Below are positions 12,799 through 37,523 of a stretch of DNA of 37,523 nt, piece after piece. The notes under the pieces are model-generated. The model made no database searches, was not told where the DNA came from, and saw nothing but the letters and a program-made list of their open reading frames with translations. This DNA is from Gammaproteobacteria bacterium. GTDB taxonomy: Bacteria; Pseudomonadota; Gammaproteobacteria; Ga0077536. Positions within the stretch are counted from its first letter, which is position 1. The number at the start of each line of letters is the position of its first letter. A program made the translations under genes and the position numbers. The DNA lies in the NCBI GenBank assembly GCA_020851775.1, contig JADZCB010000024.1, positions 1 through 37,523 of the forward strand, read 5' to 3'.

Positions 12799-12817
12799 GT
12801 TGCGGCGGCCTTTTGTT

Positions 12818-12945: not shown

Positions 12946-12953
12946 CAAACCGG

Positions 12954-14021: not shown

Positions 14022-14074
14022 CGTTGCTTACCTTGGTTGAGTGGAGGCCCGGCGCGCGGGCGCCGGGCCCGGGA

Positions 14075-14887: not shown

Positions 14888-14909
14888 GAGCGTGTGACTC
14901 CGGTCTGCG

Positions 14910-15636: not shown

Positions 15637-15665
15637 TTGACAGGGTGGGATCGCGGGCGTCTACT
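15637..15665 (+). promoter_or_regulatory. Candidate sigma70-type promoter for the plus-strand SCP2-like / hydrolase pair
   Basis: TTGACA (15637-15642), 17-nt spacer, TCTACT (15660-15665), about 48 nt upstream of the ATG at 15714. Motif match only. Confidence 0.3.
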
Positions 15666-15713
15666 GCCGCCGCTGATGCACCGAGAATCCCTCAATTCAG
15701 CGGAGGTCCCACC

Positions 15714-16091: not shown

Positions 16092-16120
16092 ACGCGTCAA
16101 CGCATTACGGGAGAACGTCA

Positions 16121-17045: not shown

Positions 17046-17310
17046 TGCCACCGAACACCAAGAACACAGAGGAGGTCGGGTTCGGATTGATCCACCACGC
17101 GTACCGCCATCCATTCAGCCCGGGTGGAGCGCAGCGCGCAACCCGCGCTTGAAGCTGTCGGTGCGTTGAAAATCCCGGGTTACGCGCTACGCGCTCCACC
17201 CGGGCTACGAACTCGGCCGCTGCTCCAAACACCGCGACGTGGCACCACGCCACTCTCATCTTCGTCGGTGTTCCCGGTGGCAATCCCCGGAACATTCGAG
17301 CGCACCGCGC
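17046..17310. repeat. Composite intergenic inverted-repeat element carrying an internal REP doublet
   Basis: Left arm TGCCACCGAACACCAAGAACACAGAGGAGG (17046-17075). Right arm TCGGTGTTCCCGGTGGCA (17265-17282) is 18/18 identical to the reverse complement of the 26426 arm. The tail GGAACATTCGAG matches the tail at 12921. The interior holds two inverted REP units. Confidence 0.7.
17117..17211. repeat. REP doublet (two inverted GTAG/CTAC-type palindromic units) forming a long hairpin
   Basis: agcccgggtggagcgc (17117-17132) pairs perfectly with gcgctccacccgggct (17191-17206), a 16-bp stem. Imperfect pairing continues inward. The right unit ends GGGCTACG. Confidence 0.6.
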
Positions 17311-17372
17311 TTGCCCCGGCGCCGGACACCCGCCCTGCCCTGCGCTACCATGGCGTCTTCGCGAGTGCCGCC

Positions 17373-18287: not shown

Positions 18288-18487
18288 GCGCGTCGGCTGG
18301 CGCGATCCCGCAGACGGCGGCCGGACGAATTTTGCGATCGCTTCTAGCTGAAAGTCCTATCGGGAGCGGTGCCTCCATCCGAATCGGCGGCTACGCGGCC
18401 CTGGAGCGTTTTGTTAGGATTCGAGGCCGCTTCCGGCTCAGGGATGCGGCGACGGGCCATTCCACTCATATTCACGGCGGCAACTCC

Positions 18488-21175: not shown

Positions 21176-21209
21176 ATCGCGCGTCGCGACCTTGCAGGAG
21201 ATGCAGACG

Positions 21210-22311: not shown

Positions 22312-23415
22312 ATGAGTGCACTCGAAGGTACGCTCGTCGTCTCGCTCGAGCAGGCGGTCGCGGCGCCCTACTGCGCCCGCCTGCTGGCCGAGGCCGGTGC
22401 GCGCGTGATCAAGATCGAACGCGACGAAGGCGATTTCGCGCGCCACTACGACACCGTCGTCAACGGCGAATCGGCGTTCTTCGTGTGGCTCAATGCCGGC
22501 AAGGAATCGATCGTGCTCGACGTCAAGCACGCCGATGATCTGGCGTTGCTGAAACGGATGGTCGCCCGGGCCGACATCTTCATCCAGAACATCCGTCCCG
22601 GGGCCGTCGACCGCCTCGGCCTCGGCTGGGAGGACGTGCAGAAGCTGAATCCGCGCACGATCATGTGCAGCATCTCGGGCTACGGGCTCAACGGCGAACT
22701 GGCCGAGTTGAAGGCCTACGACTTTCTCGTCCAGGCCGAAAGCGGCCTCGTCTCGCTGACAGGGACACCGACCGAACCGGCGCGCGTCGGGCTCTCGGTC
22801 TGCGACATCTCGACCGGTGCAACGGCCTATGGAGAAATCCTGCGTGCGCTGATCGAACGTGGCCGCACCGGTCGCGGGCAGCACCTCGACGTCGCGCTGT
22901 TCGACGTCATGACCGAATGGGCCAGCGTGCCGCTCGCGTATTACGAGTACGGCGGCAAGCGCCTGACCGGCACCGGCCTCGATCACACCCAGATCGCACC
23001 CTACGGCGCACATCACACCCGGGACGGGCTCATCATCATCGCCGTGCAGAATCATCGCGAGTGGATCAACCTCTGCAAGGTGATCGGCCGGCCCGAACTC
23101 GCCGACGACGAGCGCTTCCGCACCAACCCGCTGCGCGTCGCCAACCGCGTCGCGCTGACGGCCGAGATCGAGGCGTTCTTCCGGCAGTACACGCGCGTCG
23201 AGCTCGCGAAACTGCTCGAGGCCGGCGACATCGCCTACGGCCGCATCAACTACGTCGACGACGTGCTGAAGCATCCGGCGCTGAAGACGAAGCAGGTCGT
23301 GTCGCAAGGGCGCGTCGCGAATTTCGTGCGCCGCGTCTGCGACGAATCGGAGACACCGCGCATCGTGCCCGGCCTCGGCGAGCACAGCGCGGCGATCCGT
23401 GCCGAATTCGGCTGA
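22312..23415 (+). CDS. Family III CoA-transferase (CaiB/BaiF/Frc-like)
   Basis: 367-aa ORF. N-terminal VVSLEQAVAAPYCARLLAEAGARVIKIE, and the catalytic Asp context YDFLVQAESGLVSLTG is typical of class III CoA-transferases. Confidence 0.9.
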   Translation: MSALEGTLVVSLEQAVAAPYCARLLAEAGARVIKIERDEGDFARHYDTVVNGESAFFVWLNAGKESIVLDVKHADDLALLKRMVARADIFIQNIRPGAVDRLGLGWEDVQKLNPRTIMCSISGYGLNGELAELKAYDFLVQAESGLVSLTGTPTEPARVGLSVCDISTGATAYGEILRALIERGRTGRGQHLDVALFDVMTEWASVPLAYYEYGGKRLTGTGLDHTQIAPYGAHHTRDGLIIIAVQNHREWINLCKVIGRPELADDERFRTNPLRVANRVALTAEIEAFFRQYTRVELAKLLEAGDIAYGRINYVDDVLKHPALKTKQVVSQGRVANFVRRVCDESETPRIVPGLGEHSAAIRAEFG

Positions 23416-24434: not shown

Positions 24435-24492
24435 GTCCAGCCCCGCGCACGGCGGCGGTGGCCGCCGTGTGCTTCCCAGGAGACAACGAGAC

Positions 24493-25512
24493 ATGAGCCT
24501 GCACGTCGTCGACGGCCCGTATTTCGAAGAGTTCACCATCGGCCAGGTATTCGCCGCGCCGTCGATCACCGTCACCGACGGACACGCCGCGGTATATTCG
24601 GCGCTGTTCGGAGATCGCATGCGCCTGCCGCTCGACCGCCACCTGAGCCGTCGCGTGACCGGCGACGAGCGCCCGCTCGCCCACTCGTATCTCGCGGTCC
24701 ATCTCGCGGCCGGCCAGACGACTTACGCGTCCCAGCACGTGAAGGGCAATCTGTTCTATCGCGGCATGCTGTTGCGCAAGCCGGTCTTCGTCGGCGACTC
24801 GCTTTACACGACGACGAAGGTCGTCGGTCTGAAGCAGAACAAGGCGAAGCCCGGGCGCGCCGCGACCGGCATGGTCGCGCTCGAAATGACGACCGTGAAC
24901 CAGCGCGACGACGTCGTGCTGCATTTCTGGCGCAGCCCGATGATCGCCTGCCGCGATCAGAACGCCGCGACCGGACACGATGACGACTTCGGCTGGATCA
25001 AGCACAGTTTCGATGAAGCCGAACTGCTCGGCGCGCTGCCGGAGGGCTGGAACCTCGCGCCGCTGGCGAGCGAGCTGACGGGTCTGAAGCCGCTGGCGCT
25101 CGCCGTCGGTGACGAGGTCGACGTCAAGATTCAGGACACCGTGACCTGCGCACCGGAACTGGTCCGCATGTCGCTGAACATGGCCTATACGCACACCGAC
25201 GCGACGAAGAGCTACCTCGGCCAGCGTCTCGTCTACGGCGGCCACACGATATCACTGATCCTCGCCCAGGTCGGGCGGGCACTGCCGAACCTGCTGACGA
25301 TGGTCGCGTGGCGCTACTGCGATCACCTCGGGCCCGTGCTCGAGAACGACGTGATCAGCAGCCGCTTCAAGGTCGTCGACATCGTCGACGCGCCGCAGGG
25401 CGGCCGTCTCTACGATCTCGAGATCGAGGGCTACGCGCAGCGTCCCGATGCGAGCGGCAAATACCAGCACGAGAAGGTGCTGGCCTGGGGACTGGTGGTC
25501 TGGGGGGCTTGA
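24493..25512 (+). CDS. MaoC-like double hot-dog (R)-specific enoyl-CoA hydratase/dehydratase
   Basis: ORF 24469..25512 trimmed to the ATG at 24493 (AGGAGA 9 nt upstream), 339 aa. Two hot-dog halves. Size and N terminus (FEEFTIGQVF...TVTDGHAAVYSALFGD) resemble mesaconyl-/itaconyl-CoA hydratase-type MaoC proteins. The subfamily is not certain. Confidence 0.75.
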   Translation: MSLHVVDGPYFEEFTIGQVFAAPSITVTDGHAAVYSALFGDRMRLPLDRHLSRRVTGDERPLAHSYLAVHLAAGQTTYASQHVKGNLFYRGMLLRKPVFVGDSLYTTTKVVGLKQNKAKPGRAATGMVALEMTTVNQRDDVVLHFWRSPMIACRDQNAATGHDDDFGWIKHSFDEAELLGALPEGWNLAPLASELTGLKPLALAVGDEVDVKIQDTVTCAPELVRMSLNMAYTHTDATKSYLGQRLVYGGHTISLILAQVGRALPNLLTMVAWRYCDHLGPVLENDVISSRFKVVDIVDAPQGGRLYDLEIEGYAQRPDASGKYQHEKVLAWGLVVWGA

Positions 25513-25594: not shown

Positions 25595-26383
25595 TCACAT
25601 GCCGGCCGTATGCCCGCCGTCGATCGTGATCACGTTGCCGTTCATGTAGCGTGAGGCGTCCGAGGCGAGGAACACCAGTGCGCCATCGAGCTCGGCGGGA
25701 TCACCGAAGCGTTTGGCAGGAATGCGTTGCCGCAGTCGCTCACCGGCCGGCGAGTGCAGCCACTTGTCGTTCATTTCGGTCGCGAAATAGCCGGGCGCGA
25801 GCGCATTGACGCGGATGCCTTTCTCGGCGACGTCGACACACAGATCGCGACCGAGATTGATGAGGCCCGCCTTCGCTGCGCTGTACGGCGCGAGATGGCC
25901 GATCGCGCGGATGCCGAGCACCGAGGCGATGTTGATGATGCTGAGCGGCCGCCCGTCGGCGAGCCGCGCGGCGATGACCGCCTGCGCCAGCACCCACGGC
26001 CCGCGCAGATTCGTTTCGTACACTTCATCCCACTCGGCGTCGCCGAGTTTCTCCGGCGCGCGTGGCCGCGCGATGCCGGCGTTGTTGACGAGCACGTCGA
26101 GCGGCGCGACCGCTTCAGCTTCCGCGATCACGTGCCGTATCGCAGCGCGATCGCGCACATCCAGCGCATACACGTCGCAGACACCGCCCGCGCCCCGGAT
26201 CTCCGCGGCGAGTGAGGTCATCTTCTCGACGCTGCGCGCCGCCATCGCGACGCGTGCGCCAGCCGCCGCCAGCGTGGATGCGAAGCGTCGCCCGAGACCG
26301 CTCGACGCGCCGGTGAGAAACACGTGCTTGCCCGTCAGATCGAACAGGCCGCGCAGGAAAGGCCCGGTATCGGGGGTGCTCAT
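25595..26383 (-). CDS. Short-chain dehydrogenase/reductase (SDR)
   Basis: ORF 25595..26440 trimmed to the ATG at 26381-26383 (GGAG upstream), 262 aa. Motifs present: TGASSGLG (TGxxxGxG), NNAG, YSAAK (YxxxK). Confidence 0.9.
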   Translation of the reverse strand: MSTPDTGPFLRGLFDLTGKHVFLTGASSGLGRRFASTLAAAGARVAMAARSVEKMTSLAAEIRGAGGVCDVYALDVRDRAAIRHVIAEAEAVAPLDVLVNNAGIARPRAPEKLGDAEWDEVYETNLRGPWVLAQAVIAARLADGRPLSIINIASVLGIRAIGHLAPYSAAKAGLINLGRDLCVDVAEKGIRVNALAPGYFATEMNDKWLHSPAGERLRQRIPAKRFGDPAELDGALVFLASDASRYMNGNVITIDGGHTAGM

Positions 26384-26425
26384 CGTTTGCTCCATGTAGT
26401 TCGGTGCCACGGGATGTCTCGAATC

Positions 26426-26525
26426 TGCCACCGGGAACACCGAGGGAAATCTGATTGGGCCACCAAGGTAGGTTGGGCTTCCTTCGTCAGCCCAACCTAC
26501 GACCGCTCTATGTTCTTGGTGGTCC
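26426..26525. repeat. Intergenic inverted-repeat element copy with an internal GTAG...CTAC REP hairpin
   Basis: Left arm TGCCACCGGGAACACCGAGGG (26426-26446) followed by AAATCTGATTG. Internal perfect 12-bp hairpin gtaggttgggct-tccttcgtc-agcccaacctac (26468-26500). The right arm ctctatgttcttggtggt (26506-26523) has reverse complement accaccaagaacatagag; within it, caccaagaacatagag matches the 17046 arm segment caccaagaacacagag at 15 of 16 positions. Confidence 0.65.
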
Positions 26526-26558: not shown

Positions 26559-27464
26559 TCAAAGCCCGAGCTTCGGCTTCACCCATGCCGCGAGGCGCGC
26601 GATTGCCTGATCGGCTTCGGGCGCACGGCCGGCGAGGAAGTGGTAGACGTGCTGCATCTCGGAATCGACGTCGCAGCGGATGTCGACACCCGCTGCCTTG
26701 GCCTTGTCGACGAAGCGCAGCGAGTCGTCGAGCAGCGTTTCGTCGCCACCGACCTGGATGTAGGTCGGCGGAAAGCCCGCGAGATCGGCGTAGAGCGGGT
26801 TGGCGAGCGGGTCCTGTTTCGACGCGCTGCCGAGGAAGGTCGCCGCCATGTTCATCAGGATCGGCTCCTGCACCAGTGCGTCGGTGGCGGCCTTGGTCTT
26901 CAGGCTCGCGCCTTTCGCTTCCATGTCGTACCACGGGGACAGCGGCATCACGGCTGCCGGCAGCGGCAGGCCCTGGGCCTTCGCGGCGAGCACGACCGAA
27001 GTGCACAGACCACCGCCGGCCGAGTCACCGGTCGTTGCGATGTGGTTCGGTGTGATGCCCTGATCGAGCAGCCACTTGTAGACCTTGACCGCGTCCTCGT
27101 TCTGGGCCGGATGAGTCGCTTCCGGCGCACGGCGGTAATGCAGAATCAGCGCGCGGCAGCCGACCGCCTTCGCGAAGTGACCGAACATCTTGCGGTGCGT
27201 GTACATCGAGCCCGTGACGTAGCCACCGCCGTGCGTGCACAACAACACGCGATCCTCGCGGCAGCCTTTCGGCACGGCCCACAGGCAGGGCACGCCCGCC
27301 GCGTCGACCTCGAGGTAGTCGACGCCGCCCGGTTCGACGGTGACGTCGCCCCAATGCTCGAAGATGTCACGAATCTCATCGAGTCCCATCGTCGGGTTCG
27401 CCGCCATCGCCGCGGCCCAGCCCTTGTAGAGTTCCTTCAATGCTTCCGATTGCTTGCTTGCCAT
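26559..27464 (-). CDS. Alpha/beta hydrolase fold-3 esterase/lipase (HSL family)
   Basis: 301-aa ORF with GAGAGGA RBS. Oxyanion motif HGGGY and nucleophile elbow GDSAGG, typical of hormone-sensitive-lipase-type carboxylesterases. Confidence 0.9.
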   Translation of the reverse strand: MASKQSEALKELYKGWAAAMAANPTMGLDEIRDIFEHWGDVTVEPGGVDYLEVDAAGVPCLWAVPKGCREDRVLLCTHGGGYVTGSMYTHRKMFGHFAKAVGCRALILHYRRAPEATHPAQNEDAVKVYKWLLDQGITPNHIATTGDSAGGGLCTSVVLAAKAQGLPLPAAVMPLSPWYDMEAKGASLKTKAATDALVQEPILMNMAATFLGSASKQDPLANPLYADLAGFPPTYIQVGGDETLLDDSLRFVDKAKAAGVDIRCDVDSEMQHVYHFLAGRAPEADQAIARLAAWVKPKLGL

Positions 27465-27624
27465 TCCTCTCGTCCTCCGTTCTTTGTCGTGTTTAGTGCC
27501 TGTCCAGCATAGCGAGCGCGGCGGGCCCGGTCATCCCGGGAAACCGATCGCTGAACTGGTGACGAAATGGCGAGCGCCTCGCCGTCCGAGGGATGGCGCA
27601 GCGGAGTCCGGGATCTTCAGCGCC

Positions 27625-27666
27625 GATCCCGGGTTGCGCGCTGTGCGCTTCCCCCGGGCTACGAAG
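27625..27666. repeat. REP-like palindromic element ending GGGCTACG
   Basis: gatcccgggttgcgcgctgtgcgcttcccccgggctacgaag closely resembles 17171-17211 (aatcccgggttacgcgctacgcgctccacccgggctacgaa). It is preceded by a partial inverted unit (tccgggatc at 27607-27615 pairs with gatcccggg at 27625-27633). Confidence 0.55.
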
Positions 27667-27676
27667 ACGATGTCTC

Positions 27677-28987
27677 TCACCGCCCCGTTTCGTTCAACAC
27701 GCTCGGCTCGAAGTCCTTCTGATCGATGTTGTCCGGGTTGGTGACGTGCAGCATCTGCAGCGTCGTGCAATGCTGGTTCTGCAGATCGATCGCCGCCGAC
27801 GAGTCGAGCAGCGGTACACCGGTGCCCTTGTTCTGCGGCACGTGGTAGTCCGGGTGCGCGACGCCGCCGATCAGCATCTTCCACAAGGTGCCGGCGCGGT
27901 CGTAGGTCTTGCCGAAAACCGGCAGCATGGTCTGTGCATCGAGATAGAAGTAGCGCTTCGACAGCGGATGATCCGAGCGCGTCGGCTCGCCTTCGAGAAT
28001 GTGCGCCTTGCGCAACTGCCAGCTCACGTTCGGGAAACAACTCGAATAACCGCCGAAGTCGACGAACTGGTAGTCGTACTTGCGCGCCTTCAGATCCGCA
28101 TGCTGCTGCTGATCGTGGCGATACATCGGCAGCATCACGTACGTCGGTCCCTTGTACGTCCACTTCATGTCGCGGATGCGGCCGCTGTAACCGAGGAAAT
28201 CCTCGATCATGAGATCGCTGCCGAGAAAGGAGTCCGTGCGCGTCGTCGTCGCGATGCGGCGCACGCGACGGAGATTCGGCACGTACATCCAGCCCTGCTC
28301 TTCGGCGTTGTCGTCGCTGTTGTAGAAGATCAGGATCTTCGTCCCCGACACGTCACCCGGATCTTCGGCCGTCAGCGTGAAGGCGCTGAACACTGCGTAG
28401 GGATTGCGCTCGACGTGCGGCACCGGGTCGACGACATGGCGGTACATGAAGCGCATGCCGACAGCCGTGAACGTCAGCGTGCGCTCGAGGGTCTGCGTGC
28501 GCATTTGACGATACCCCCAGTACATCTCGGGGATCGCGCCGCTGTCTCCGGCATAGGCATAGCGCATGTTCCAGATCAGCTTGTCGCCGGCGCGCGGATC
28601 GTCGAGGGACGGCTCGCCGGGAAACGGGCGGCCGGCCGTGTAGTTCAGCAGATCGCCGGGCTTCTCACCGAGCTGTGTCTGACCGCCGTACTGCTGCGTG
28701 GCGGCGACGTAGTTCGGATGCGGATCGAACGAGAGCGGTTCGCCGACAGCGATACTGACCCAGTTCTTCACGACGAGGTCGGCAAAATCCGGATCGAGGA
28801 GCTGGCGATACTGCTCCAGGTTGTCCGCTCCGATCACCGTGCCGGGCGCCGGCGCCATCTCCTGGATTTCGGCCACATTGAAATCGAAATCTCCGGCCCA
28901 CCCGGCCGGGGCTGCGACGAACGTGAATACCCCGGCGACGGACACGCGCAGGCCGCGCACGACCGCCCTGGTCAGCGAGTTTTTCAT
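27677..28987 (-). CDS. DUF1329-family periplasmic protein (paralog B)
   Basis: 436-aa ORF with AGAGGA RBS and a signal-like N terminus (VSVAGVFTFVAAPAGWA). The blocks NYTAGRPFPG and YVPNLRRVRRIATTTRTDSFLGSDLMIEDF are shared with the protein at 31150-32520 and are typical of DUF1329 as I remember it. Confidence 0.8.
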   Translation of the reverse strand: MKNSLTRAVVRGLRVSVAGVFTFVAAPAGWAGDFDFNVAEIQEMAPAPGTVIGADNLEQYRQLLDPDFADLVVKNWVSIAVGEPLSFDPHPNYVAATQQYGGQTQLGEKPGDLLNYTAGRPFPGEPSLDDPRAGDKLIWNMRYAYAGDSGAIPEMYWGYRQMRTQTLERTLTFTAVGMRFMYRHVVDPVPHVERNPYAVFSAFTLTAEDPGDVSGTKILIFYNSDDNAEEQGWMYVPNLRRVRRIATTTRTDSFLGSDLMIEDFLGYSGRIRDMKWTYKGPTYVMLPMYRHDQQQHADLKARKYDYQFVDFGGYSSCFPNVSWQLRKAHILEGEPTRSDHPLSKRYFYLDAQTMLPVFGKTYDRAGTLWKMLIGGVAHPDYHVPQNKGTGVPLLDSSAAIDLQNQHCTTLQMLHVTNPDNIDQKDFEPSVLNETGR

Positions 28988-29053
28988 GGATAAATCCTCT
29001 GTTGCGTTGCGAACGATGCGTGAAGTGCTGCCGCCGCGCGGCGAATACCCCGG

Positions 29054-29668
29054 TCAAAGTGCGAGCGACGACACCGAATAATGCCGTTTGATGGCGGGTA
29101 GCGCGAGCGTCAGTGACGCCATCATCAGCGAGTGCATCGGCCGTCCCTGCTCGATGCACTGAAGGAACTCCTGGACGTCGACGAGTTCGACTTCGAGATC
29201 TTCGTAAGTGTCGAGCTTGGGCTCGGCGAGCTTGCGGCAACCGGTGCCGAGGAAGACGTGCATGCGATTGTCCTGCAGGCCGGGGTTCGGATAGTGCAGA
29301 CCGAGGTAGTTCATGCGCCCTGCAGCATAGCCGGTTTCCTCGAGCAGCTCGCGGGTCGCGGCTGCTTCCGGCGTTTCATCCGGATTGTCGGGTTCGAGCG
29401 TCCCGCCCGGAAACTCGTAGAAGCGGCGACGCGCCGCGTGACGATACTGGTTCACGAGCACGATCTGACCGTCCTCGGTCAGCGGCACGACATTGACCCA
29501 GTCGACGAATTCCATGACGAAATAGGCCGGCATGATGCGCTCGTCGGGCAGCGCGCAGCGGTCCTTGCGGAAACGGAAATAGGGGTGGCTGAAGAGTTCG
29601 TCGGAACTCAGGATCTCCCACCGTTCGGTGCGGGTACGGGCGCCGTCGCGGTCTTTGGGATCGTTCAC
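29054..29668 (-). CDS. NUDIX hydrolase (ADP-ribose pyrophosphatase-like)
   Basis: ORF 29054..29965 trimmed to the in-frame GTG at 29666-29668, because further upstream it would overlap the HEAT gene (stop at 29689). The start is uncertain. Nudix box GGTLEPDNPDETPEAAATRELLEETG (REx2EExG). The N-terminal beta domain pattern (PYFRFRKD...VNVVPLTEDGQIVLVNQYRHA) resembles NudF-type enzymes. Confidence 0.72.
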   Translation of the reverse strand: MNDPKDRDGARTRTERWEILSSDELFSHPYFRFRKDRCALPDERIMPAYFVMEFVDWVNVVPLTEDGQIVLVNQYRHAARRRFYEFPGGTLEPDNPDETPEAAATRELLEETGYAAGRMNYLGLHYPNPGLQDNRMHVFLGTGCRKLAEPKLDTYEDLEVELVDVQEFLQCIEQGRPMHSLMMASLTLALPAIKRHYSVSSLAL

Positions 29669-29688
29669 CGCCCGCCGCCCGTCATCGC

Positions 29689-30858
29689 TCAGATCTGCAC
29701 GCCGCCGACATAGCGGTGTCCCGCGATGTGCACGATCGACCAGGCCGCCATGCCTCGGATCCCCGCATCCTCGTCCTTCAGGAACGGCACCAGCCGGGCC
29801 AGCGCAGCTTCGTCCTTGCGCTGACCGATCAACCAGATGGTCTGCATGCGGATGTCCGCTTCCTGGTGCCCGAGCCCCCAATCGTAGATCTTGCTCGCGT
29901 CGCTCGCGATCCAGCCCCAGGACTCGAGCAGGCGCGTCGCGGCATCGTTCTTCAGCGGGCAGCAATGAATCAGGGTTTCGGAAATCTGCGCCGCCATCTG
30001 CGGCGGCAGCCGCTTCAGCGCACCCGCCATCACGGTCGCTTCCATCGGCTTGCCATAGCCGATGGTCTGGATGATCTGGGAAATAGCGTCATCGTCGCCG
30101 AGCGCGGCCTTGCTCGCGATGGCCGCGAGCGCCACACGCTGATCGGTCTCCTTGGCCAGGACCGCGAGCTTGTCCTTCGCTTCCTTGCTGTCGACGAGTC
30201 CGAGGGCGACGGCCGCGACCTCGCGCACGTCGACACTCGACTCCTCGGCCGCCGAAAGCATCGCGCTGCGTGCGTTCGCGTCACCGCCAATCAGCAATGT
30301 GTATTGACCGTAGGCGCGGATGACGGCCGATGTGTGGGTGTCGGCGACGAGTGCGCGCACCGCCGCGTCTTCGGCAGAGCCTGCCGAACGCACCAATGCC
30401 TGCAGGGCGTGGCGCTTGACGAAATCAGTACTGTCCGGCCCCAGCGCCTCGACCAGCAGGTCGCCCATGTCGTCGCGCGGGACCGACGCCAGCGACTCCG
30501 CCATCAAGCCGAGGACCTCCGGGTTCCGTGCGGCGGATTTGAGCAGCAGGTTGACGCCGTTCGGGTGCGTCGCGGTGATCAGCGTGTCGATCGCCGAGCG
30601 CCGGATCACGATGTCCTCGACGTCGATACAGCGCTCGAGCAGCACCAGGGCTTGTGCATCTCCGATATCGCTCAGCGCACCGGCGGCCAGGATGCGATCG
30701 TAGATGTCCTGCGAGTTCATCATTTCGCGCGCGACGTCGACGGCGCGATAAAGGCTCTGGTCCGACTGTTCGGCCGGCTCGGTGGCCAGCGCGGCGAGCG
30801 GCAGGCCGAAGGTGAGCGTGAGAACGGGAAAAAGAAAACGAGGCAGAAGGTTCGGCAT
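29689..30858 (-). CDS. Exported HEAT/armadillo-like repeat protein
   Basis: 389-aa ORF with GGAGA RBS. N terminus MPNLLPRFLFPVLTLTFGLPLAALA-TEP is signal-like. The rest is all-helical with recurring 30-40-aa units such as RILAAGALSDIGDAQALVLL, VIRRSAIDTLI, VKRHALQALVRSG, VREVAAVALGLV, RVALAAIASKAALGD and AGIRGMAAWSIVHIAG, typical of PBS-lyase HEAT-like repeats. Confidence 0.72.
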   Translation of the reverse strand: MPNLLPRFLFPVLTLTFGLPLAALATEPAEQSDQSLYRAVDVAREMMNSQDIYDRILAAGALSDIGDAQALVLLERCIDVEDIVIRRSAIDTLITATHPNGVNLLLKSAARNPEVLGLMAESLASVPRDDMGDLLVEALGPDSTDFVKRHALQALVRSAGSAEDAAVRALVADTHTSAVIRAYGQYTLLIGGDANARSAMLSAAEESSVDVREVAAVALGLVDSKEAKDKLAVLAKETDQRVALAAIASKAALGDDDAISQIIQTIGYGKPMEATVMAGALKRLPPQMAAQISETLIHCCPLKNDAATRLLESWGWIASDASKIYDWGLGHQEADIRMQTIWLIGQRKDEAALARLVPFLKDEDAGIRGMAAWSIVHIAGHRYVGGVQI

Positions 30859-31075
30859 GACGGTCTCCGCTGGCTTGCCGGTTCGAGCCGGAAATCCGCT
30901 GTGGGTTCCGCCAGTCTATCAGTCCCGTCGCAGAATTTCGTCGGCGCATCACCTTGCGTGCCAGGCTTGCGGGTGCGGCCATGGGCCTCTGAAAAGTGCG
31001 GGCGCCCGATGCCGAGCCGAACTTCGGCGCCGGTGTATTCGCGGGCCACTACGACTCGCTTTGAGTCGTCGCCGC

Positions 31076-31103
31076 AAAAAACAAGGGCCGCGTTGCGGCC
31101 CTT
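31076..31103 (-). terminator. Rho-independent terminator after DUF1329 paralog A
   Basis: On the minus strand: aagggccgc-aac-gcggccctt (perfect 9-bp stem) followed by GTTTTTTG. It lies about 47 nt downstream of the stop at 31150. Confidence 0.7.
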
Positions 31104-31116
31104 GGAAGGAAACGGA

Positions 31117-31142
31117 CTGGATCGGGCGTGAGCCCGATCCAG
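31117..31142 (-). terminator. Second perfect hairpin immediately after the DUF1329 paralog A stop
   Basis: ctggatcgggc-gtga-gcccgatccag is a perfect 11-bp stem, 7 nt from the stop codon, in tandem with the 31076 terminator. Confidence 0.45.
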
Positions 31143-31149
31143 GAAGACC

Positions 31150-32520
31150 TCAGCGGCCTTCGGTGAGATAGTTCACGTCGAGGATCTTCTTCACGAGATC
31201 CAGATCCGTCGCCGGGTTGGAGTGGCCGCGGCAGGGCACGAGCGTCCCGCGGTTGTTCTGCAGGTCGATCACGTTGATCGACTGGAACATGCTGACCCGC
31301 GAGCCCGGAGGCGTCACCTCAGCCTTCCATTTCGTGACCTGCTCCTGAAGCTGCGGGTCTTCCGACCACGCCTTCGAGAGCTGCCACACCTTCCAGAGCT
31401 GACCGGCCTTGTCGAAGGCGTTCGCGTGGTAGCACTCGCCGCTCTGGCGATCGATGTGCAGGAACTTCAGCGAATACGGATGGCTCGCGCGCTTGGGGAT
31501 CTGCTTCATCACGTCGACCTGGCGCAGCGCCCAGTCGTCGAGCATCGCCCAGCCGTTCGGGCCGTAGTAGACCGCGTCCGAATTGCGCGAGCGCGCCACG
31601 GCCAACTGTCTCGCGGTGCCGACGTACTCCCACTCGTGCTCGAGCGGACGGCCGTTGAAGCAGTAGAAATCTTCCAGCGTGTGATCCGTGCCGAGCAGCG
31701 AGTCCGACTTCACTTCCACCGAGATGCGGCGCACGCGACGCAGGCTCGGGATGTAAGCCCAAGAGTCGTCGGTCTTGCGCGGGTTGTCGTAGCGGAGGAT
31801 CAGGAAAGCCGTACCGGCGATGTCGAAGGGCGAGGAGAAGCCCGTGTATTCGCGGAACTCCGTGTCCTTCGCGAAGCCTTCGCCGTTGTTGACCTTGTAG
31901 TTTTTCTCCGGCAGGTCCGAACGGTGCGAGAACATCACGCGGCGATAGGGGCCGGCCAGCGCGCGCTCGAAGGAGCCGCCGCCCGTATAGTAGGGCTTAT
32001 ACTTGCCGCCGCCTTCGCTCATGATTTCGTGGCCGCTGTGCTCGCCGCCCGCGCGCACCCATACCCAGTGCACCTCCCGGTTCGAAAGGCCGCCGAGCTG
32101 CCAGCGGAAGTTGAAGTTCCACGTCATCTTCTGGCCGTCTTCCTTGCCCGGCTTGAAGGTGGCCGGGTCGAAGGGGCGGCCCGCCGTATAGTTCTCGAGC
32201 GCGCCGTCGGCCGCGATCGTTGCCGTGCCGGCGAACTGCTCCGTGGCTTTCTGGTAGACCTCGGCCGGGCTCAGATCGCCGGCGTCTTTGATCTTGACTT
32301 CCATGCCCTCGAAGATCTGGATGTCCTGATACTCGGCGGGCGTGAACGGACGGATCAGATCGGCCTTGTCATAGGTGATGACGTCACCGTCGACGAACTG
32401 CGGCTGCGCGCTCTGATTGGCATTGAACCAGGCCATGTAGTCGTCCGGCGTGAAGGCAGTCGCCGCCAGCGGCTGCGCCGCGAACGCGGCCAGCAGAGCG
32501 TACCGAATCGGATTTTTCAT
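31150..32520 (-). CDS. DUF1329-family periplasmic protein (paralog A)
   Basis: 456-aa ORF with GAGGAG RBS. Signal-like N terminus MKNPIRYALLAAFAAQPLAATA. Has the blocks NYTAGRPFDP and YIPSLRRVRRISVEVKSDSLLGTDHTLEDF. Confidence 0.82.
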   Translation of the reverse strand: MKNPIRYALLAAFAAQPLAATAFTPDDYMAWFNANQSAQPQFVDGDVITYDKADLIRPFTPAEYQDIQIFEGMEVKIKDAGDLSPAEVYQKATEQFAGTATIAADGALENYTAGRPFDPATFKPGKEDGQKMTWNFNFRWQLGGLSNREVHWVWVRAGGEHSGHEIMSEGGGKYKPYYTGGGSFERALAGPYRRVMFSHRSDLPEKNYKVNNGEGFAKDTEFREYTGFSSPFDIAGTAFLILRYDNPRKTDDSWAYIPSLRRVRRISVEVKSDSLLGTDHTLEDFYCFNGRPLEHEWEYVGTARQLAVARSRNSDAVYYGPNGWAMLDDWALRQVDVMKQIPKRASHPYSLKFLHIDRQSGECYHANAFDKAGQLWKVWQLSKAWSEDPQLQEQVTKWKAEVTPPGSRVSMFQSINVIDLQNNRGTLVPCRGHSNPATDLDLVKKILDVNYLTEGR

Positions 32521-32555
32521 TGAGTTGAACTCCTCGTTCTTTCTGTCGTTGCATT

Positions 32556-32588
32556 CCGCGCCGGCCGCCGTGGGCTCGGCCGGCGCGG
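32556..32588 (-). other. Intercistronic GC hairpin between the DUF1302 and DUF1329 genes
   Basis: ccgcgccggcc-N11-ggccggcgcgg is a perfect 11-bp stem with no T-tract. It could be an mRNA processing/stability element or a partial attenuator setting barrel:periplasmic-protein stoichiometry. Confidence 0.4.
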
Positions 32589-32615
32589 AGTTTGACCCTC
32601 GTCTATCCGCCAGCT

Positions 32616-34913
32616 TTAGAATTGATACTTAAGCTGGAAGAACACCTCGTCGTTGTTGCGCAGCGCGCCGATGCCTTCCCGACCAACACCGAAGACGCTG
32701 TTGTTATACGGGTCGCGAAGTCCGTTCGCTCCCGGCGTAGCGAACGATGTGTAAGGACCGAGATCGTGCCGGTAGTTCTCGTCTCCCTCCCAAATCATAT
32801 GGAGACCCCCTTTGATGGACCAGTGGTTGTCGATGAACCACTCGACGTTCTGGCCGAACACATAGGAGTTCGAGGCCTCTTCCCACACCACGAAGCCGAC
32901 CGGCTTGACCTTGTCACGCATGTAATTGCCGATCCAGAAGAAGGTCGTGATGAAGTTGTGCTCGTCCTGGAAGTATCCCGTGTGCTTGTCGCCCTCGTGA
33001 TCCATGTACCAGGTATCGAAGATCTGCATCGACAGGAAGAAGGTGCGATCCTTGTTCAGCCACGGGATGAAGGTCGGACGGTCCATGCCGATCGACCACC
33101 GCATGACTTCACTGGTATCCACCCAATTCGCCTTGCGCGTGTTGTTGACGAGTTCGTCGAAGGTCCACGATGACTCCACACGGAACACGATACCGGACCA
33201 CGGTTCGAAGTAATCGAACGAGAGCCCCGGCGTGTGCGACTGCTTGTAGTTCATGCTGACGCCACCGCCATTCATGATGGCCGTGCGATAGAGGATCGTT
33301 GCATCCTTCTTCGCGATGGCTTCACGTGCGGCATCCTGCACATTGACCATATTACCGGTGAGATTATCCAGTATCTGTCCTGTGCCGTTGGCCGCGAGAG
33401 CCTGGAGCGCCTGATTCGGATCCGCCACCCGGATCGGGATACCAAAAGCTTCAGCAGGAATGCCTGCAACATTTGTGCAAGCTCCGCCGCCGCCGCCCGG
33501 GAGCGCGAACGCGGCACTCAAGCCTGCAATCGTACAATCTGCCGTCCCGAGCAGTGCAGCTGCCCCGCCCGCAAGATTCGCCTCGGGTACCAGCACGCTG
33601 TCGAAACGGAAGATCGGGGTGTCGTTCCAACCGTAGTAGTAGGACGTAGCGATGTGCAATTCGCCGAGACGGAACTCCCAGCGCAGACCCGCTTCGGTGT
33701 TCTCGATATCCCACTCTGGGCGATTATCGCCACCAGACAGACCGGCCGGCTGACCGAAGCCCGTAGGCTTGCGCGGGTCATTGGGTCCACGCGAACCGCA
33801 GACGATGTTGTGGTTGAGTGCCACGCCCGCAGCGGCGGCATCCGCCACGGCCAGGTTGAGGCCGAGGCAGGGCTCGACGGAGAAGTACTCATTGAAAGCG
33901 GCGAAGGTCGCAATGTCCTTTGAAAACGGGTGCGCCCAACCGGCGGACGGATTGCCAAGGCCTACATGCTGGAATTCATCGAAATTCCACACGAGCTGGA
34001 TGGCGTTGTCCGTAGTCGGACCGACATTGCCGAACTTCCATTGCGCCGACGCGATCCACTGCGGGATGCGGATGTCCTCGAAGGAATCGAAGAAGAAGTG
34101 CTGGCCGAAGTCGACCGGATTCACCAGATCCTGCAAACGGAAGAAGTCTGTCTTGCCCCACACGATCTGCTGCTTGCCCACGCGGAACCACCAGTCGCCG
34201 GCGGTCGCGTCGACATAGAGCTCGCGGAACGGATACAGCCGGCCACTGGAACCGGTGTTGTTCATCGCGACGTCGAGCGGATCGTCGTCGAGGTCATAGC
34301 AGCGACGGCAATTCAGCTCCATCGGAGTCAGCGGCGAGAACTGGCTCAACATCGACCCGTTCCCTGCTGCAACGCTGTACTTCGCACCTGACGCTGTACG
34401 GTTGAGAATAGTTTCGAAATTATTGGCGAAGCTGGGATTCTCCAGACCATTAAGGATGAGTTTCCCGACACCACCAGTATTAAACGTGCCGAACGGCCCG
34501 CCAACAATCGCGTCAAAGCCACCGAAACCGACCGGATTGTTATCGAAGCCCCACTTGTTGCCCATGTAAGAAGGCGTGGTGCCATTGCGACCACGGCCAC
34601 CGCCGATGTCATCGCCGTAGTAATAGGCTGCATCGAACTCGGGACGGATCACCGTCACGAAGCTCAAGGTATCGAAAATGCCGATGTCTTCGTAATTGAC
34701 CTCGGCATTGAGCTCGAAACGCTGTATCCACTGGTTCAGGTAGGGGCTACCGTTGCCCACATTCGCTCGCGCTTCGGAGCTGAGGTAGCCTTCGAGTTTC
34801 ACCTCGCCCCCGAGTGCGTCGATCATGATGCGTGCCTCTGCAGCAGGTGCGATCAACACCGCGGCAGAAAGCACGGACGCACCCAATGACAAAGCGCGCA
34901 AAGTGCTTTTCAT
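32616..34913 (-). CDS. DUF1302-like outer-membrane beta-barrel protein
   Basis: ORF 32616..35033 trimmed to the ATG at 34911-34913 (GGGAGA upstream), 765 aa. Signal peptide MKSTLRALSLGASVLSAAVLIAPAAEA. Gly/aromatic-rich with alternating beta-strand patterns. The C-terminal FFQLKYQF ends in Phe, as in OMPs. Its position directly upstream of a DUF1329 gene fits the usual DUF1302/DUF1329 pairing. Family assignment is by eye. Confidence 0.75.
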   Translation of the reverse strand: MKSTLRALSLGASVLSAAVLIAPAAEARIMIDALGGEVKLEGYLSSEARANVGNGSPYLNQWIQRFELNAEVNYEDIGIFDTLSFVTVIRPEFDAAYYYGDDIGGGRGRNGTTPSYMGNKWGFDNNPVGFGGFDAIVGGPFGTFNTGGVGKLILNGLENPSFANNFETILNRTASGAKYSVAAGNGSMLSQFSPLTPMELNCRRCYDLDDDPLDVAMNNTGSSGRLYPFRELYVDATAGDWWFRVGKQQIVWGKTDFFRLQDLVNPVDFGQHFFFDSFEDIRIPQWIASAQWKFGNVGPTTDNAIQLVWNFDEFQHVGLGNPSAGWAHPFSKDIATFAAFNEYFSVEPCLGLNLAVADAAAAGVALNHNIVCGSRGPNDPRKPTGFGQPAGLSGGDNRPEWDIENTEAGLRWEFRLGELHIATSYYYGWNDTPIFRFDSVLVPEANLAGGAAALLGTADCTIAGLSAAFALPGGGGGACTNVAGIPAEAFGIPIRVADPNQALQALAANGTGQILDNLTGNMVNVQDAAREAIAKKDATILYRTAIMNGGGVSMNYKQSHTPGLSFDYFEPWSGIVFRVESSWTFDELVNNTRKANWVDTSEVMRWSIGMDRPTFIPWLNKDRTFFLSMQIFDTWYMDHEGDKHTGYFQDEHNFITTFFWIGNYMRDKVKPVGFVVWEEASNSYVFGQNVEWFIDNHWSIKGGLHMIWEGDENYRHDLGPYTSFATPGANGLRDPYNNSVFGVGREGIGALRNNDEVFFQLKYQF

Positions 34914-35349
34914 CGCGTTATCTCCCATGTTTCCCCCTAGAAGTACACATGCGCCTTGCGGCACATGTGCGAGTTCACAGCCATCGGGCCCGCCGCCTTC
35001 CCCTGTCCACCGGCCATACGGCACGGTATTCAAGACGAGCTGCCCCGATTTGTTCGCGAGTGTGTCACAGCTGTTGTAAAGGGTAAACAGGAATTTGCGA
35101 CTTATTCGTCATTTGAGGGATAGCTGTGGCTGACGTGCAACAGAAACGCTGCAAGCGCATGATTTGCTGCGTCGCGTCATCCACACCTGAGTCCAGCCCT
35201 GTTCCACCCGGGATCGCGCGCGTCCCGAGGCCGAGTCGTCTTCCGCAGCGGTTCCAGCCCGCTCCCTGGCCGGCTTAAATGTATACACTCGGCTCCTCAA
35301 TTTTTCGATGAAGCCTGGCGGCCCTGCGCCGCGGGCGCGGTGAACGGAC

Positions 35350-36822
35350 GTGATCGAGATAGGCGTATTCCACAACGGCGCGAGCGACCTGCCGCCGGTG
35401 CGCACCCGCGACGGCACCGTCTGCAACGACGGCAGCCTCGCCGAGGTCCATGCCGCGGCCCAGCGCACGATCGTCAACCAGATCCGCCAGGGCATCCTCG
35501 CCGACCGGCTGGGCTTCGACTACTGGTTCCAGACCGAGCACCACTTCCAGCCCGAAGGGGCGGAGATGAGCCCGAACCCGCTGGCGAGCGAGATGGCGAT
35601 CGCCGCCAACACCCGGCGCATCCGGCTCGGTCAGGCCGCGAACATCATCACCTGGCATCATCCGGTGCGGCTGGCCGAGATGGCCGCAATGCTCGACGTC
35701 GTCAGCGGCGGGCGCGTCGAGGTCGGCGTCGGCCGCGGCTACCAGCCGCGCGAGAACGAGGTGCTCGGCAAGCCCTATGGCTCCACGATCCAGGATCAGG
35801 AGCGCAACCGCGTCGCCTTCCACGAAGCGCTCGACATCCTGATCAAGTGCTGGACGGAGCCCTCGTTCAGCCACCGCGACGAGTTCTTCTCGATTCCGCC
35901 GCGCTACACCAAGTGGAACCACAAGCAGACCGTCGCCTACTACGGGCTCGACAAGGTCGAGCGCGAAGTCGAGGACGTGCTGTCCCTGGGCTCGCCGGAC
36001 ATGTATTCCGCCGGCAGCCCGGTGCTGGCGACGACGACCACCTTGCGCGAGATCAGCGTCTTTCCGCAGCCGCTGCAGAAGCCCTATCCGCAGCTGTGGG
36101 AGCCCTTGACGAGCCCGCGCTCGATCCGCTTCTGCGCCGAGCGCGGCGTCAACGGCTATTTCATCGTCGAGCCCAATTCGCGACTGAAGCAGAACGTCGA
36201 GATGTACTACGAGGACGCCGAGCGCGCGGGCTGGCCCGATCGCCTGCAGCGCGGGGCATTCAAGTACGGCTGGGACTGCGACAAGCGCCGCGGCATCGTC
36301 ACCTGCCGCTACATCCACCTGCTGCTGCCGGGCATGGATCGCGACAAGGAGCTCGAGCGCCTGAAGTTCGCGCTCGAAGTGCAGTGGGACTACTACGGGC
36401 CCTTCGGCTTCGCGGCGCTGGTGTCAGAGGCGGGCGAGGATTCGATGGACCTGCGCACGAAGATCCGTCCGGAATCTCTGCTCGCCAAGGACATCGCGCT
36501 GTTCGGCACACCCGCGGAAGTGGTCGAGAAAATCATGCGCACCAAGGAGTACGTCGGCTACGACGACTTCATGTTCCATGCCTGGTTCGAGCTGGCCGGC
36601 TTCCAGGGTGCGGAGATCGAGGACCAGATGTACTATTTTGCCGAGGAGTGCATGCCGCTGCTCGATCGCGCCTGCGGCGGCCGACCGCCTCCGCGCACGG
36701 ATTTCCCGGTGCCGAGTTTCGACGACGTGCGCGCCGCCGCGCCGCGCCGGGCACGCGATGCGTTTCCATCCACCCCAACCCCACACGACAAGAACCGACA
36801 TGACACCCGAAGAATTCCGTAA
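35350..36822 (+). CDS. LLM-class flavin-dependent monooxygenase (oxygenase component of a two-component system)
   Basis: 490-aa ORF with a GTG start (MIEIGVFHNG...). Luciferase-like blocks present: LGFDYWFQTEHHF, RLGQAANIITWHHPVRLAEMAAMLDVVSGGRVEVGVGRGY, LFGTPAEVVEKI. The last ~48 aa form a low-complexity P/R/D-rich tail that overlaps the reductase start. Confidence 0.85.
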   Translation: MIEIGVFHNGASDLPPVRTRDGTVCNDGSLAEVHAAAQRTIVNQIRQGILADRLGFDYWFQTEHHFQPEGAEMSPNPLASEMAIAANTRRIRLGQAANIITWHHPVRLAEMAAMLDVVSGGRVEVGVGRGYQPRENEVLGKPYGSTIQDQERNRVAFHEALDILIKCWTEPSFSHRDEFFSIPPRYTKWNHKQTVAYYGLDKVEREVEDVLSLGSPDMYSAGSPVLATTTTLREISVFPQPLQKPYPQLWEPLTSPRSIRFCAERGVNGYFIVEPNSRLKQNVEMYYEDAERAGWPDRLQRGAFKYGWDCDKRRGIVTCRYIHLLLPGMDRDKELERLKFALEVQWDYYGPFGFAALVSEAGEDSMDLRTKIRPESLLAKDIALFGTPAEVVEKIMRTKEYVGYDDFMFHAWFELAGFQGAEIEDQMYYFAEECMPLLDRACGGRPPPRTDFPVPSFDDVRAAAPRRARDAFPSTPTPHDKNRHDTRRIP

Positions 36823-37282
36823 AGCCTGTGGTTTCTGGGCCAGCGGCGTCTCGATCATCACGACCCGCGACACCGACGGCAGGCCCTATGGCCTGACGAT
36901 GAACGCAGTGACATCGCTGTCGTTGGATCCGCCGATGTTCGTCATCTGCGTCGACAACAAGTCCGACACGCTGGAGCCGCTGAAGCGCAGCGGCGTGTTC
37001 TGCATCAACGTGCTGCAGCAGGACCAGCAGCCGCTGTCGAATGCCTTCGCGAAGAAGAATCCGGACAAGTTTGCCGAGGTCGCCTACGAGTGGGGCGAGT
37101 CGGGCGCCCCGCTGCTGACGGGCCGCCTGATGGGCATCGAATGCCGGGTCAGCGCCGTGCATCCGGGCGGCGACCACCACATCGTCGTCGGCACCGTGAC
37201 GCAGATTACCCGCCCCGGCGGCGACGACGCGCCACCGATGCTGTACTACCGGGGACGCTACGCCAACCTGGCTGCGTCATAG
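36800..37282 (+). CDS. NAD(P)H-dependent flavin reductase (HpaC/NtaB-like small component)
   Basis: ORF 36578..37282 trimmed to the ATG at 36800, 160 aa. FRKACGFWASGVSIITTRDTDGRPYGLTMNAVTSLSLDPPMFVICV is the flavin-reductase-like domain signature. It overlaps the LLM gene by 23 nt. Confidence 0.9.
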   Translation: MTPEEFRKACGFWASGVSIITTRDTDGRPYGLTMNAVTSLSLDPPMFVICVDNKSDTLEPLKRSGVFCINVLQQDQQPLSNAFAKKNPDKFAEVAYEWGESGAPLLTGRLMGIECRVSAVHPGGDHHIVVGTVTQITRPGGDDAPPMLYYRGRYANLAAS

Positions 37283-37430: not shown

Positions 37431-37523
37431 ATGATGTTTAACCGCGCTGTCCGTCGGCCGCTCGCGGCTATCGGAAATACTTTGATTCTCGCTGCCCTCG
37501 CCACCCCGGCGCTGGCGGCCCGC
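37431..37523 (+). CDS. Start of an exported protein (5' fragment, truncated by window edge)
   Basis: ATG at 37431 with GAAGG upstream. MMFNRAVRRPLAAIGNTLILAALATPALAAR looks like a signal peptide (basic n-region, hydrophobic core, ALA site). Only 31 codons are visible. Confidence 0.45.
   Translation, partial: MMFNRAVRRPLAAIGNTLILAALATPALAAR

Follow-up and report, generated by a model that had tools for sequence, protein, structure and literature searches.

A predicted exported HEAT-repeat protein accompanies DUF1302 and DUF1329 genes in uncultured Gammaproteobacteria

The stretch of DNA analyzed here, referred to as the window, appears to be an entire 37,523-bp (37.5-kb) contig of a metagenome-assembled genome (MAG) from an uncultured gammaproteobacterium, with a G+C content of approximately 65%. 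It carries a five-gene array that encodes a DUF1302 outer-membrane barrel, a DUF1329 protein (DUF1329-A), a HEAT-repeat protein predicted from its signal-peptide-like N terminus to be exported, a NUDIX hydrolase, and a second DUF1329 protein (DUF1329-B). Our results favor, somewhat beyond even chances, the view that this module is a lineage-specific, enlarged form of the envelope system composed of DUF1302, DUF1329, a BNR (Ycf48-like) protein, and an MMPL (RND) transporter. The HEAT protein, DUF1329-A, and the NUDIX hydrolase are additions to this four-part system and not substitutes for its BNR and RND members, and the module is neither a minimal nor a partner-less variant. The four-part system is already known, if poorly understood; the conserved, exported HEAT-repeat protein is a new part of it.

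All five genes lie on the minus strand, at the coordinates given in an earlier note on this DNA (here termed the original prediction). Pfam identified their products, in order, as DUF1302, DUF1329, HEAT_2, NUDIX, and DUF1329, with the DUF1302 protein and both DUF1329 proteins scoring above the family cut-offs (Table 1), so that the same-strand array and its family assignments stand as they had been proposed. The barrel comprises 765 amino acids (aa) from its ATG codon and begins with the signal peptide MKSTLRALSLGASVLSAAVLIAPAAEA. Both DUF1329 proteins carry a Sec signal peptide; that of DUF1329-A is without a lipobox Cys, and DUF1329-A also matches LolA_like (E value of 9e-17). NCBIfam contains no model that represents the DUF proteins.

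The gene order in approximately 60 related loci (designated below by L numbers) was derived from a BLAST-based synteny map together with called genes searched with Pfam. The conserved order, with arrowheads for orientation and parentheses for genes that are not always present, is BNR< flavin reductase< (luciferase-like monooxygenase<) (MMPL>) DUF1302> (DUF1329-A>) HEAT> (NUDIX>) DUF1329-B>, followed by (esterase) short-chain dehydrogenase/reductase (SDR)> MaoC< CoA-transferase< (alcohol dehydrogenase<) aldehyde dehydrogenase<. The window holds every element of this order except MMPL, with the BNR gene truncated at the contig end. The arrangement was seen again in 31 species-level MAGs and dozens of contigs from metagenomes and therefore is no chance juxtaposition; the combination of HEAT, NUDIX, and a second DUF1329 gene singled out in the original prediction is co-conserved and not unique to one strain. 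Wherever the related loci reach far enough, DUF1302 orthologues are found 5' of HEAT and DUF1329-B is found 3' of it, and the HEAT gene always lies between DUF1302 or DUF1329-A on one side and DUF1329-B on the other. Even HEAT homologues with only 26 to 28% identity are still located 3' of DUF1302 or of a DUF1302-DUF1329-A pair, and this position is kept in lineages from marine, freshwater, and groundwater settings, despite several rearrangements among the neighboring genes.

A second survey, seeded with DUF1329, covered 80 metagenome loci, some of which duplicate MAG loci. HEAT was directly 5' of DUF1329-B in all 24 loci whose DUF1329-B was at least 59% identical (and which had enough upstream sequence) and was absent from all 29 loci with a DUF1329-B identity of 55% or below. 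Among the 20 low-identity loci with at least 5 kb of upstream sequence, 13 had MMPL, 11 had DUF1302, and 6 had BNR, in the canonical order BNR> MMPL> DUF1302> DUF1329. The nearest relatives of our locus that have no HEAT gene are mostly arranged as MMPL> DUF1302> DUF1329, several of them with BNR upstream. These sequence comparisons indicate that HEAT is a clade-defining insertion into the canonical barrel-DUF1329 pair and that it coexists with BNR and MMPL.

The HEAT family itself comprises 67 orthologue clusters with 37 to 97% identity, all of approximately 385 aa. It is represented by about 40 single-domain representatives at 50% identity among 1.84 billion proteins and by 31 species in a set of genomes from 185,579 species, all of them uncultured Gammaproteobacteria such as Ga0077536. 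An N-terminal signal peptide is present in the window protein, and the N terminus is hydrophobic in 54 of 56 family members. An AlphaFold2 (AF2) model built with 56 sequences (predicted local distance difference test [pLDDT] of 91.8, predicted template modeling [pTM] score of 0.86) has 22 helices in approximately 11 repeats, with residues 1 to 28 disordered. A profile search of PDB found alphaRep proteins at 1e-29, and a Foldseek search of PDB with the model gave TM-scores of only 0.3 to 0.4, solely to designed repeat proteins, importins, and PP2A. The family shares its repeat type and solenoid fold with PBS-type HEAT-like proteins (PF13646/PF03130), including alphaRep, YibA, NblB, and the bilin lyases of the CpcE/F type; unlike those cytoplasmic proteins, it has a signal peptide, a fixed length, a fixed position beside DUF1302/DUF1329, and conserved motifs of its own (ESLAS.PRDDM, CC.L..DAATR..ESWG, and GMAAW). 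Against the NCBIfam equivalogs, all scores were far under the cut-offs (NblB, 33.9 bits versus 300; CpcE, 23.5 bits versus 330), and placement among the bilin lyases or NblB-type proteins was not supported. A Cys299-Cys300 pair (window positions 29959-29964) is conserved across the family, with each of the two residues found in at least 90% of the 56 sequences; in an exported protein this pair could be a vicinal disulfide or a ligand site.

The presence of HEAT matches exactly that of a long-form barrel. The median barrel open reading frame, measured from stop to stop, is 821 aa in HEAT loci versus 638 aa in the nearest non-HEAT loci. An insertion of approximately 105 residues, mapped by alignment to residues ~448 to 552 (window positions 33258-33572), accounts for the main length difference. 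It is Gly/Ala-rich, contains two cysteines, and is not found in the nearest canonical DUF1302 barrels.

The usual company of DUF1302 and DUF1329, a BNR/Ycf48-like protein and an RND/MMPL transporter, was correctly given in the original prediction, as both the literature and the outgroup loci indicate. The further statement that neither partner occurs in the window stood for MMPL, of which no gene was found anywhere in the 37,523 bp, and failed for BNR. The last 93 nt of the window encode MMFNRAVRRPLAAIGNTLILAALATPALAAR, matching the N terminus of the BNR protein of the close relative L002, MMFNRAIRRPLAVIGQSLIIAAVALPAMAAR, and a full BNR gene (PF14870, PSII_BNR) lies past the flavin reductase in all related loci with enough sequence on that side. 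The BNR/RND pair whose presence just outside the window would have spoken against that statement proved to be half there, as the BNR gene starts at the contig end. MMPL is located directly 5' of DUF1302 in 17 related loci and in L040. It is present in most loci of a more distant clade (HEAT identity of 50% or less), with L016 and L025 as the members without it, and is missing from the locus in the closer clade. DUF1329-A and locus-linked MMPL tend to exclude each other (11 loci with A only, 15 with MMPL only, 2 with both, and 1 with neither). The two loci with both are L034, which combines A, HEAT, B, BNR, and MMPL without NUDIX, and L019. L040 (GCA_964555355.1) holds all nine genes in one array, that is, the order of the window plus MMPL. 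HEAT occurs with BNR and MMPL together in at least 15 loci; it therefore has not replaced them, contrary to what had been proposed for HEAT and the second DUF1329 protein. In GCA_022843415.1, the genome that holds L002, an MMPL gene on another contig is 83% identical to the locus-linked MMPL of L034. The MMPL of the A-bearing clade therefore appears to have been relocated and not lost.

The relocated orthologue in GCA_022843415.1 (L039, positions 1-2800) adjoins bchI/bchD-like Mg-chelatase genes, and in GCA_001468985.1 (L038, positions 1-9800) the Mg-chelatase genes are also flanked by genes for CrtC, phytoene synthase, and phytoene desaturase. Members of this lineage may be aerobic anoxygenic phototrophs.

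The two DUF1329 proteins of the window are only 26% identical over 422 columns and fall into two deeply separated orthologous groups in a 47-sequence tree, which upholds the proposal that their split is old and does not reflect a recent duplication. The sequence blocks reported as common to both were also seen, as NYTAGRPF and [IV]P[SN]LRRVRRI...DS[LF]LG[TS]D...EDF. DUF1329-B is the universal DUF1329 protein of these loci, and DUF1329-A belongs to a separate orthogroup found only in a subset of them. In L007 (DAOKZI010000004.1, positions 6305-10000), the nearest relative, there are two tandem copies of DUF1329-A, and an insertion of approximately 650 bp with palindromes resembling repetitive extragenic palindromic elements lies between the second copy and HEAT.

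The strong terminator described between DUF1329-A and HEAT was confirmed as a 10-pair hairpin, CAAGGGCCGC-AAC-GCGGCCCTTG, followed by T6 at positions 31104 to 31082, approximately 45 nt past the DUF1329-A stop codon. It is the only strong terminator among five sites found in 8 kb. A hairpin and T-run are present within 260 nt 5' of HEAT in 22 of 32 related loci, versus an expectation of 2.6% derived from the locus-wide density. The stems differ in sequence from locus to locus and are present whether DUF1329-A or the barrel is the upstream gene; in L007, the hairpin is retained and the T-run is lost. The terminator is predicted to divide the array in two, barrel(+A) on one side and HEAT-(NUDIX)-B on the other, and its recurrence in 22 of 32 loci makes this operon split a conserved property. 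A scan for sigma-70 consensus promoters from 27400 to 35400 found no site, and Rfam gave no match in the whole window. By eye only, we spotted a TA[GA]ACT box approximately 55 nt 5' of the HEAT ATG that is common to the window, L004, and L007. In these three closest loci, the box is followed by GGAACC...TTCCGG...GCGGAGA, 10 to 60 nt 5' of the HEAT start (window positions 30880-30935; L004, ~2500-2560; L007, ~9930-9990), and the element may provide the promoter and leader for the HEAT-NUDIX-B unit. At the opposite end of the array, the divergent intergenic region between DUF1302 and the monooxygenase gene measures 436 bp. A near-perfect palindrome, CACATGCGCC-N4-GGCACATGTG, at window positions 34946-34969 sits in this common region, 33 to 56 nt 5' of the DUF1302 start codon, and is a possible operator site.

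The NUDIX gene has a GTG start codon 23 nt past the HEAT stop codon, and its product is a cytoplasmic protein without a signal peptide. The REx2EE core of its NUDIX box reads RELLEETGY, and the interval from the leading Gly to the first Glu is longer by four residues. All named NCBIfam models have cut-offs far above its scores (NudE, 47.6 bits versus 169), and the closest PDB entries are of the NudF/ADPRase type (5c7q at 9e-19, and 1mk1). NUDIX genes occupy the same slot in at least 11 loci of both clades, with 68 to 95% identity in L004, L007, L016, L019, L020, L021, L023, L024, L028, and L040, and are better conserved than HEAT.

The adjoining two-component flavin monooxygenase was found as had been described. 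A frameshift in the monooxygenase gene, considered because Pfam covers only the N-terminal part of its product, was discarded, as the orthologues align over their full length with 76 to 98% identity. The probable ATG codon of the flavin reductase gene, at 36800, overlaps the monooxygenase stop codon, and the reductase gene lies between BNR and the transport genes in all loci. NUDIX and the monooxygenase co-vary: 7 loci have both, 1 has NUDIX only, none has the monooxygenase only, and 18 have neither (Fisher test, 1e-5, not corrected for phylogeny). Further loci (L040 and L057 with both, L076 with NUDIX only) bring these totals to at least 9, 2, 0, and at least 18, respectively. In the DUF1329-B tree, the double-positive loci are scattered among double-negative ones, and the two genes have therefore been gained or lost jointly several times. 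This co-variation across the intervening transport genes hints at a functional connection, for instance via a dinucleotide cofactor. The outgroup NUDIX homologues in L123 and L124 (approximately 50% identity) sit among housekeeping genes and are neutral as to such a link outside the locus.

The order of the catabolic genes between 17124 and 27464 is kept beside the transport genes in most related loci. The cargo suggested by these conserved neighbors, and the most likely one, is a hydrophobic substrate or intermediate of the adjacent LysR-linked pathway. This pathway would include the flavin monooxygenase, an esterase, alcohol and aldehyde dehydrogenases, a CoA-transferase, and beta-oxidation-type enzymes. 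No specific substrate, be it a steroid, a terpenoid, or an alkane, could be named, as the luciferase-like monooxygenase, HsaB-like reductase, HSL-type esterase, CoA-transferase, MaoC, and SDR proteins all score below the equivalog cut-offs. The apparatus for hydrophobic substrates envisaged in the original prediction has a plausible catabolic context; its inference that BNR and RND had been replaced is not supported.

Table 1. Features of the 37,523-bp window
Feature	Coordinates	Strand	Basis or remark
cNMP (cyclic nucleotide monophosphate)-binding GGDEF diguanylate cyclase	5998-7002		Seemingly unrelated to module
MFS transporter	7263-8600		Seemingly unrelated to module
Second aldehyde dehydrogenase	8776-10269		Seemingly unrelated to module
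Luciferase-like monooxygenase	10499-11764	-	Second oxygenase/hydrolase block
Muconolactone-isomerase-like protein	12109-12798		Second oxygenase/hydrolase block
Luciferase-like monooxygenase	12954-14027	-	Second oxygenase/hydrolase block
Alpha/beta hydrolase	14075-14965	-	Second oxygenase/hydrolase block
Alpha/beta hydrolase	15893-16978	+	Second oxygenase/hydrolase block
LysR regulator	17124-18287	+	Pfam/NCBIfam
Acyl-CoA dehydrogenase	18332-19654	+	Pfam/NCBIfam
Aldehyde dehydrogenase	19685-21175	+	Pfam/NCBIfam
Zn alcohol dehydrogenase	21192-22298	+	Pfam/NCBIfam
Family III CoA-transferase	22312-23415	+	Pfam/NCBIfam
MaoC hydratase	24469-25512	+	Pfam/NCBIfam
SDR	25595-26440	-	Pfam/NCBIfam
HSL-family esterase	26559-27464	-	Pfam/NCBIfam
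DUF1329-B, LolA-like	27677-28987	-	PF07044, E 5e-55, 187.7 bits versus cut-off of 23.1
NUDIX hydrolase, ADP-ribose-pyrophosphatase-like, 203 aa	29054-29665	-	PF00293, E 2.7e-16, 60.2 bits
HEAT-repeat solenoid, predicted exported, 389 aa	29689-30858	-	HEAT_2 PF13646, E 2.8e-23, 82.4 bits versus cut-off of 27.7
Intrinsic terminator between DUF1329-A and HEAT	31082-31104	-	10-bp stem with 8 G-C pairs, T6
DUF1329-A, LolA-like	31150-32520	-	PF07044, E 1.5e-35, 123.6 bits versus cut-off of 23.1
DUF1302 outer-membrane barrel, long form	32616-34913	-	PF06980, E 4e-18, 66 bits versus cut-off of 23.2
Luciferase-like (LLM) flavin monooxygenase, 490 aa	35350-36822	+	Pfam Bac_luciferase, E 3e-35; divergent from DUF1302
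NAD(P)H-flavin reductase	36800-37282	+	Pfam Flavin_Reduct, E 7e-45; HsaB-like, 151 bits, below cut-off
BNR/Ycf48-like beta-propeller partner, first 31 codons (signal peptide)	37431-37523	+	Match to L002 BNR N terminus

Farther from the array, the window contains a second oxygenase/hydrolase block (10499-16978), with two luciferase-like monooxygenases, two alpha/beta hydrolases, and a muconolactone-isomerase-like protein (MIase). In L001 and L004, too, the locus is bordered by genes for MIase and alpha/beta hydrolases, and the catabolic island therefore extends beyond the five-gene module. The region from 2227 to 10269, which encodes a CorA-like transporter and a VWA-domain protein in addition to the proteins listed in Table 1, is seemingly unrelated to the module. 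Among the related loci, L008, L012, L014, L022, and L030 come from MAG records entitled Hydrogenophaga intermedia, Klebsiella pneumoniae, or Enterobacteriaceae. The genes in them are 59 to 87% identical to those of the Ga0077536-type locus, and these records are probably mislabelled or contaminated bins.

Similar systems have been described in several bacteria. Price et al. reported cofitness of the four canonical families and a four-gene cluster in Shewanella amazonensis (Sama_1588-1591) that encodes DUF1302, DUF1329, BNR (COG4447), and RND-MMPL (COG1033) proteins. Our locus and its relatives share these four families and a putative envelope/transport role with that cluster; our locus differs from it in the exported HEAT protein between barrel and DUF1329, a barrel longer by approximately 150 to 180 aa, the second DUF1329 paralogue, and the NUDIX gene within the array. 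In addition, its BNR gene is inverted and set off by the flavin reductase and monooxygenase genes, and MMPL has moved out. In Pseudomonas putida, the system comprises PP_0765/PP_0766 together with PP_2018/PP_2019, and mutants grow poorly on Tween 20 and on butyl stearate (Thompson et al. 2020; Foldy 2024). Its DUF1302 barrel and DUF1329 protein show a genetic connection to a BNR/RND pair encoded elsewhere and are required for cells to grow on fatty esters. A shuttle model was proposed after co-folding of these proteins. In published predictions, DUF1329 contacts the barrel or, alternatively, the BNR-RND pair, and a barrel-DUF1329 complex was predicted with an ipTM (the interface pTM score) of 0.84. 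In contrast to our locus, the P. putida system has no HEAT protein, a single DUF1329 protein, and LuxR-type regulation, and its BNR-RND pair is unlinked as a whole, whereas only MMPL is unlinked in the clade studied here. The AmeABCD proteins of Castellaniella defragrans, which underlie a monoterpene phenotype and have been characterized as an efflux system, consist of a DUF1302 barrel (AmeA), a DUF1329/LolA-like protein (AmeB), a COG4447 protein (AmeC), and an RND transporter (AmeD), and they too are encoded inside a cluster that metabolizes a hydrophobic substrate. They differ in having no HEAT, NUDIX, or second DUF1329 protein and in the length of AmeA (605 aa). The alkane-uptake phenotype of Marinobacter AupA/AupB, which the original prediction had named for DUF1302/DUF1329, does not carry over. 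These proteins resemble ours as an outer-membrane protein with a partner, both required for the use of a hydrophobic substrate; however, the original paper assigns no DUF or Pfam family, likens AupA to FadL, and places AupB, whose family is given as unknown, in the inner membrane, whereas the barrel here is DUF1302. No paper combining DUF1329 with a HEAT repeat was found in the literature searched, and the HEAT-containing variant therefore seems to be undescribed.

In the enlarged four-part system that we favor, the barrel would serve as the outer-membrane port, and the LolA-like DUF1329 proteins would ferry a hydrophobic molecule through the periplasm, linking the barrel with an MMPL-BNR complex in the inner membrane; the shuttle step is taken from the model based on published co-folding of the P. 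putida proteins. The HEAT protein would be an added periplasmic adaptor that tethers DUF1329-B, and DUF1329-A if present, to the barrel, perhaps via the clade-specific insertion, or that joins them to BNR/MMPL. The NUDIX hydrolase would belong to the cytoplasmic, enzymatic side, outside the envelope machine, because its gains and losses coincide with those of the monooxygenase.

Several points weigh against this interpretation. MMPL is absent from the contig, and we infer its presence in the genome from a relative. The contacts of HEAT with the other components are hypothetical. The HEAT fold is generic, and the Foldseek matches give no functional lead. AF2 modeling of the barrel from its single sequence was unusable (mean pLDDT of 30.7), so that the membrane side of the insertion could not be read. 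The duplicate loci in the DUF1329-seeded survey and the presence/absence statistics, which are not phylogeny-corrected, also count here, as does the fact that transport could be uptake or efflux, in the canonical system as well.

This last point leads to the strongest alternative, which has a real though minority chance of being correct. The same machine would work in the opposite direction, with HEAT as an adaptor on the export route, and would discharge a lipid, a compound of the surfactant type, or a hydrophobic intermediate that is toxic instead of taking up the growth substrate. MMPL/RND proteins are proton-driven exporters, and the MMPL orthologue of GCA_022843415.1 lies beside carotenoid and bacteriochlorophyll genes. 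Moreover, export of a cell-wall component was suggested by Price et al., and the homologous AmeABCD system is read as efflux. The transport genes lie, however, inside a catabolic cluster in all related loci, and the P. putida mutants fail on fatty esters. Neither observation is decisive, because export of a solubilizing factor or efflux of a toxic intermediate predicts the same picture.

A serious rival, although we consider it rather improbable, is that HEAT helps the long-form barrel to assemble or to remain stable and stands outside the working conduit, a role like that of Ycf48, a BNR protein that assists the assembly of photosystem II. The exact match between HEAT and the long barrel would fit this role, as would the generic solenoid fold and the position of HEAT in a separate predicted unit past the terminator, which is consistent with a sub-stoichiometric helper. 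That HEAT appears to share its transcription unit with DUF1329-B, a presumed working component, argues in the other direction.

It is quite doubtful that HEAT and/or NUDIX are passengers, kept beside the transport genes by descent and functionally unlinked to them. NUDIX is missing from about two-thirds of the loci, and its nearest outgroup homologues (approximately 50%) are found in housekeeping contexts; HEAT, however, keeps its position down to 26% identity in several lineages and through several rearrangements, and NUDIX is better conserved (68 to 95%) than HEAT and co-varies with the monooxygenase. Least probable, and largely refuted, is a variant that has no BNR or RND and relies on HEAT and the second DUF1329 protein as functional replacements: the lack of MMPL on the contig and the anti-correlation of DUF1329-A with locus-linked MMPL would agree with it, but BNR starts at 37431, HEAT, BNR, and MMPL occur together in at least 15 loci, L040 (and, minus NUDIX, L034) holds A, HEAT, NUDIX, B, BNR, and MMPL, and an A-clade genome keeps an 83%-identical MMPL elsewhere.

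DUF1302/DUF1329/BNR/MMPL systems occur widely among Proteobacteria, with Pseudomonas aeruginosa and P. putida as examples, and are required for growth on some hydrophobic substrates; to our knowledge, they have no solved barrel structure, known cargo, or known direction of transport. All carriers of the HEAT-containing form are uncultured Gammaproteobacteria, so that its function is approachable only through heterologous expression. A clade with a co-inherited HEAT protein, a matching barrel insertion, and an optional second LolA-like paralogue provides handles for co-folding and co-evolution analysis. We raise, as a distinctly tentative suggestion, that a fixed bridge through the periplasm, from the barrel to the MMPL-BNR complex, is built from HEAT, the clade-specific barrel insertion of 105 residues, and the two LolA-like paralogues, where the canonical system would instead use a diffusing DUF1329 shuttle. 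If true, this would be a new architecture for the transfer of hydrophobic molecules across the Gram-negative envelope, and the natural variants, with or without DUF1329-A and with or without a linked MMPL, would be informative on the DUF1302/DUF1329 system as a whole.

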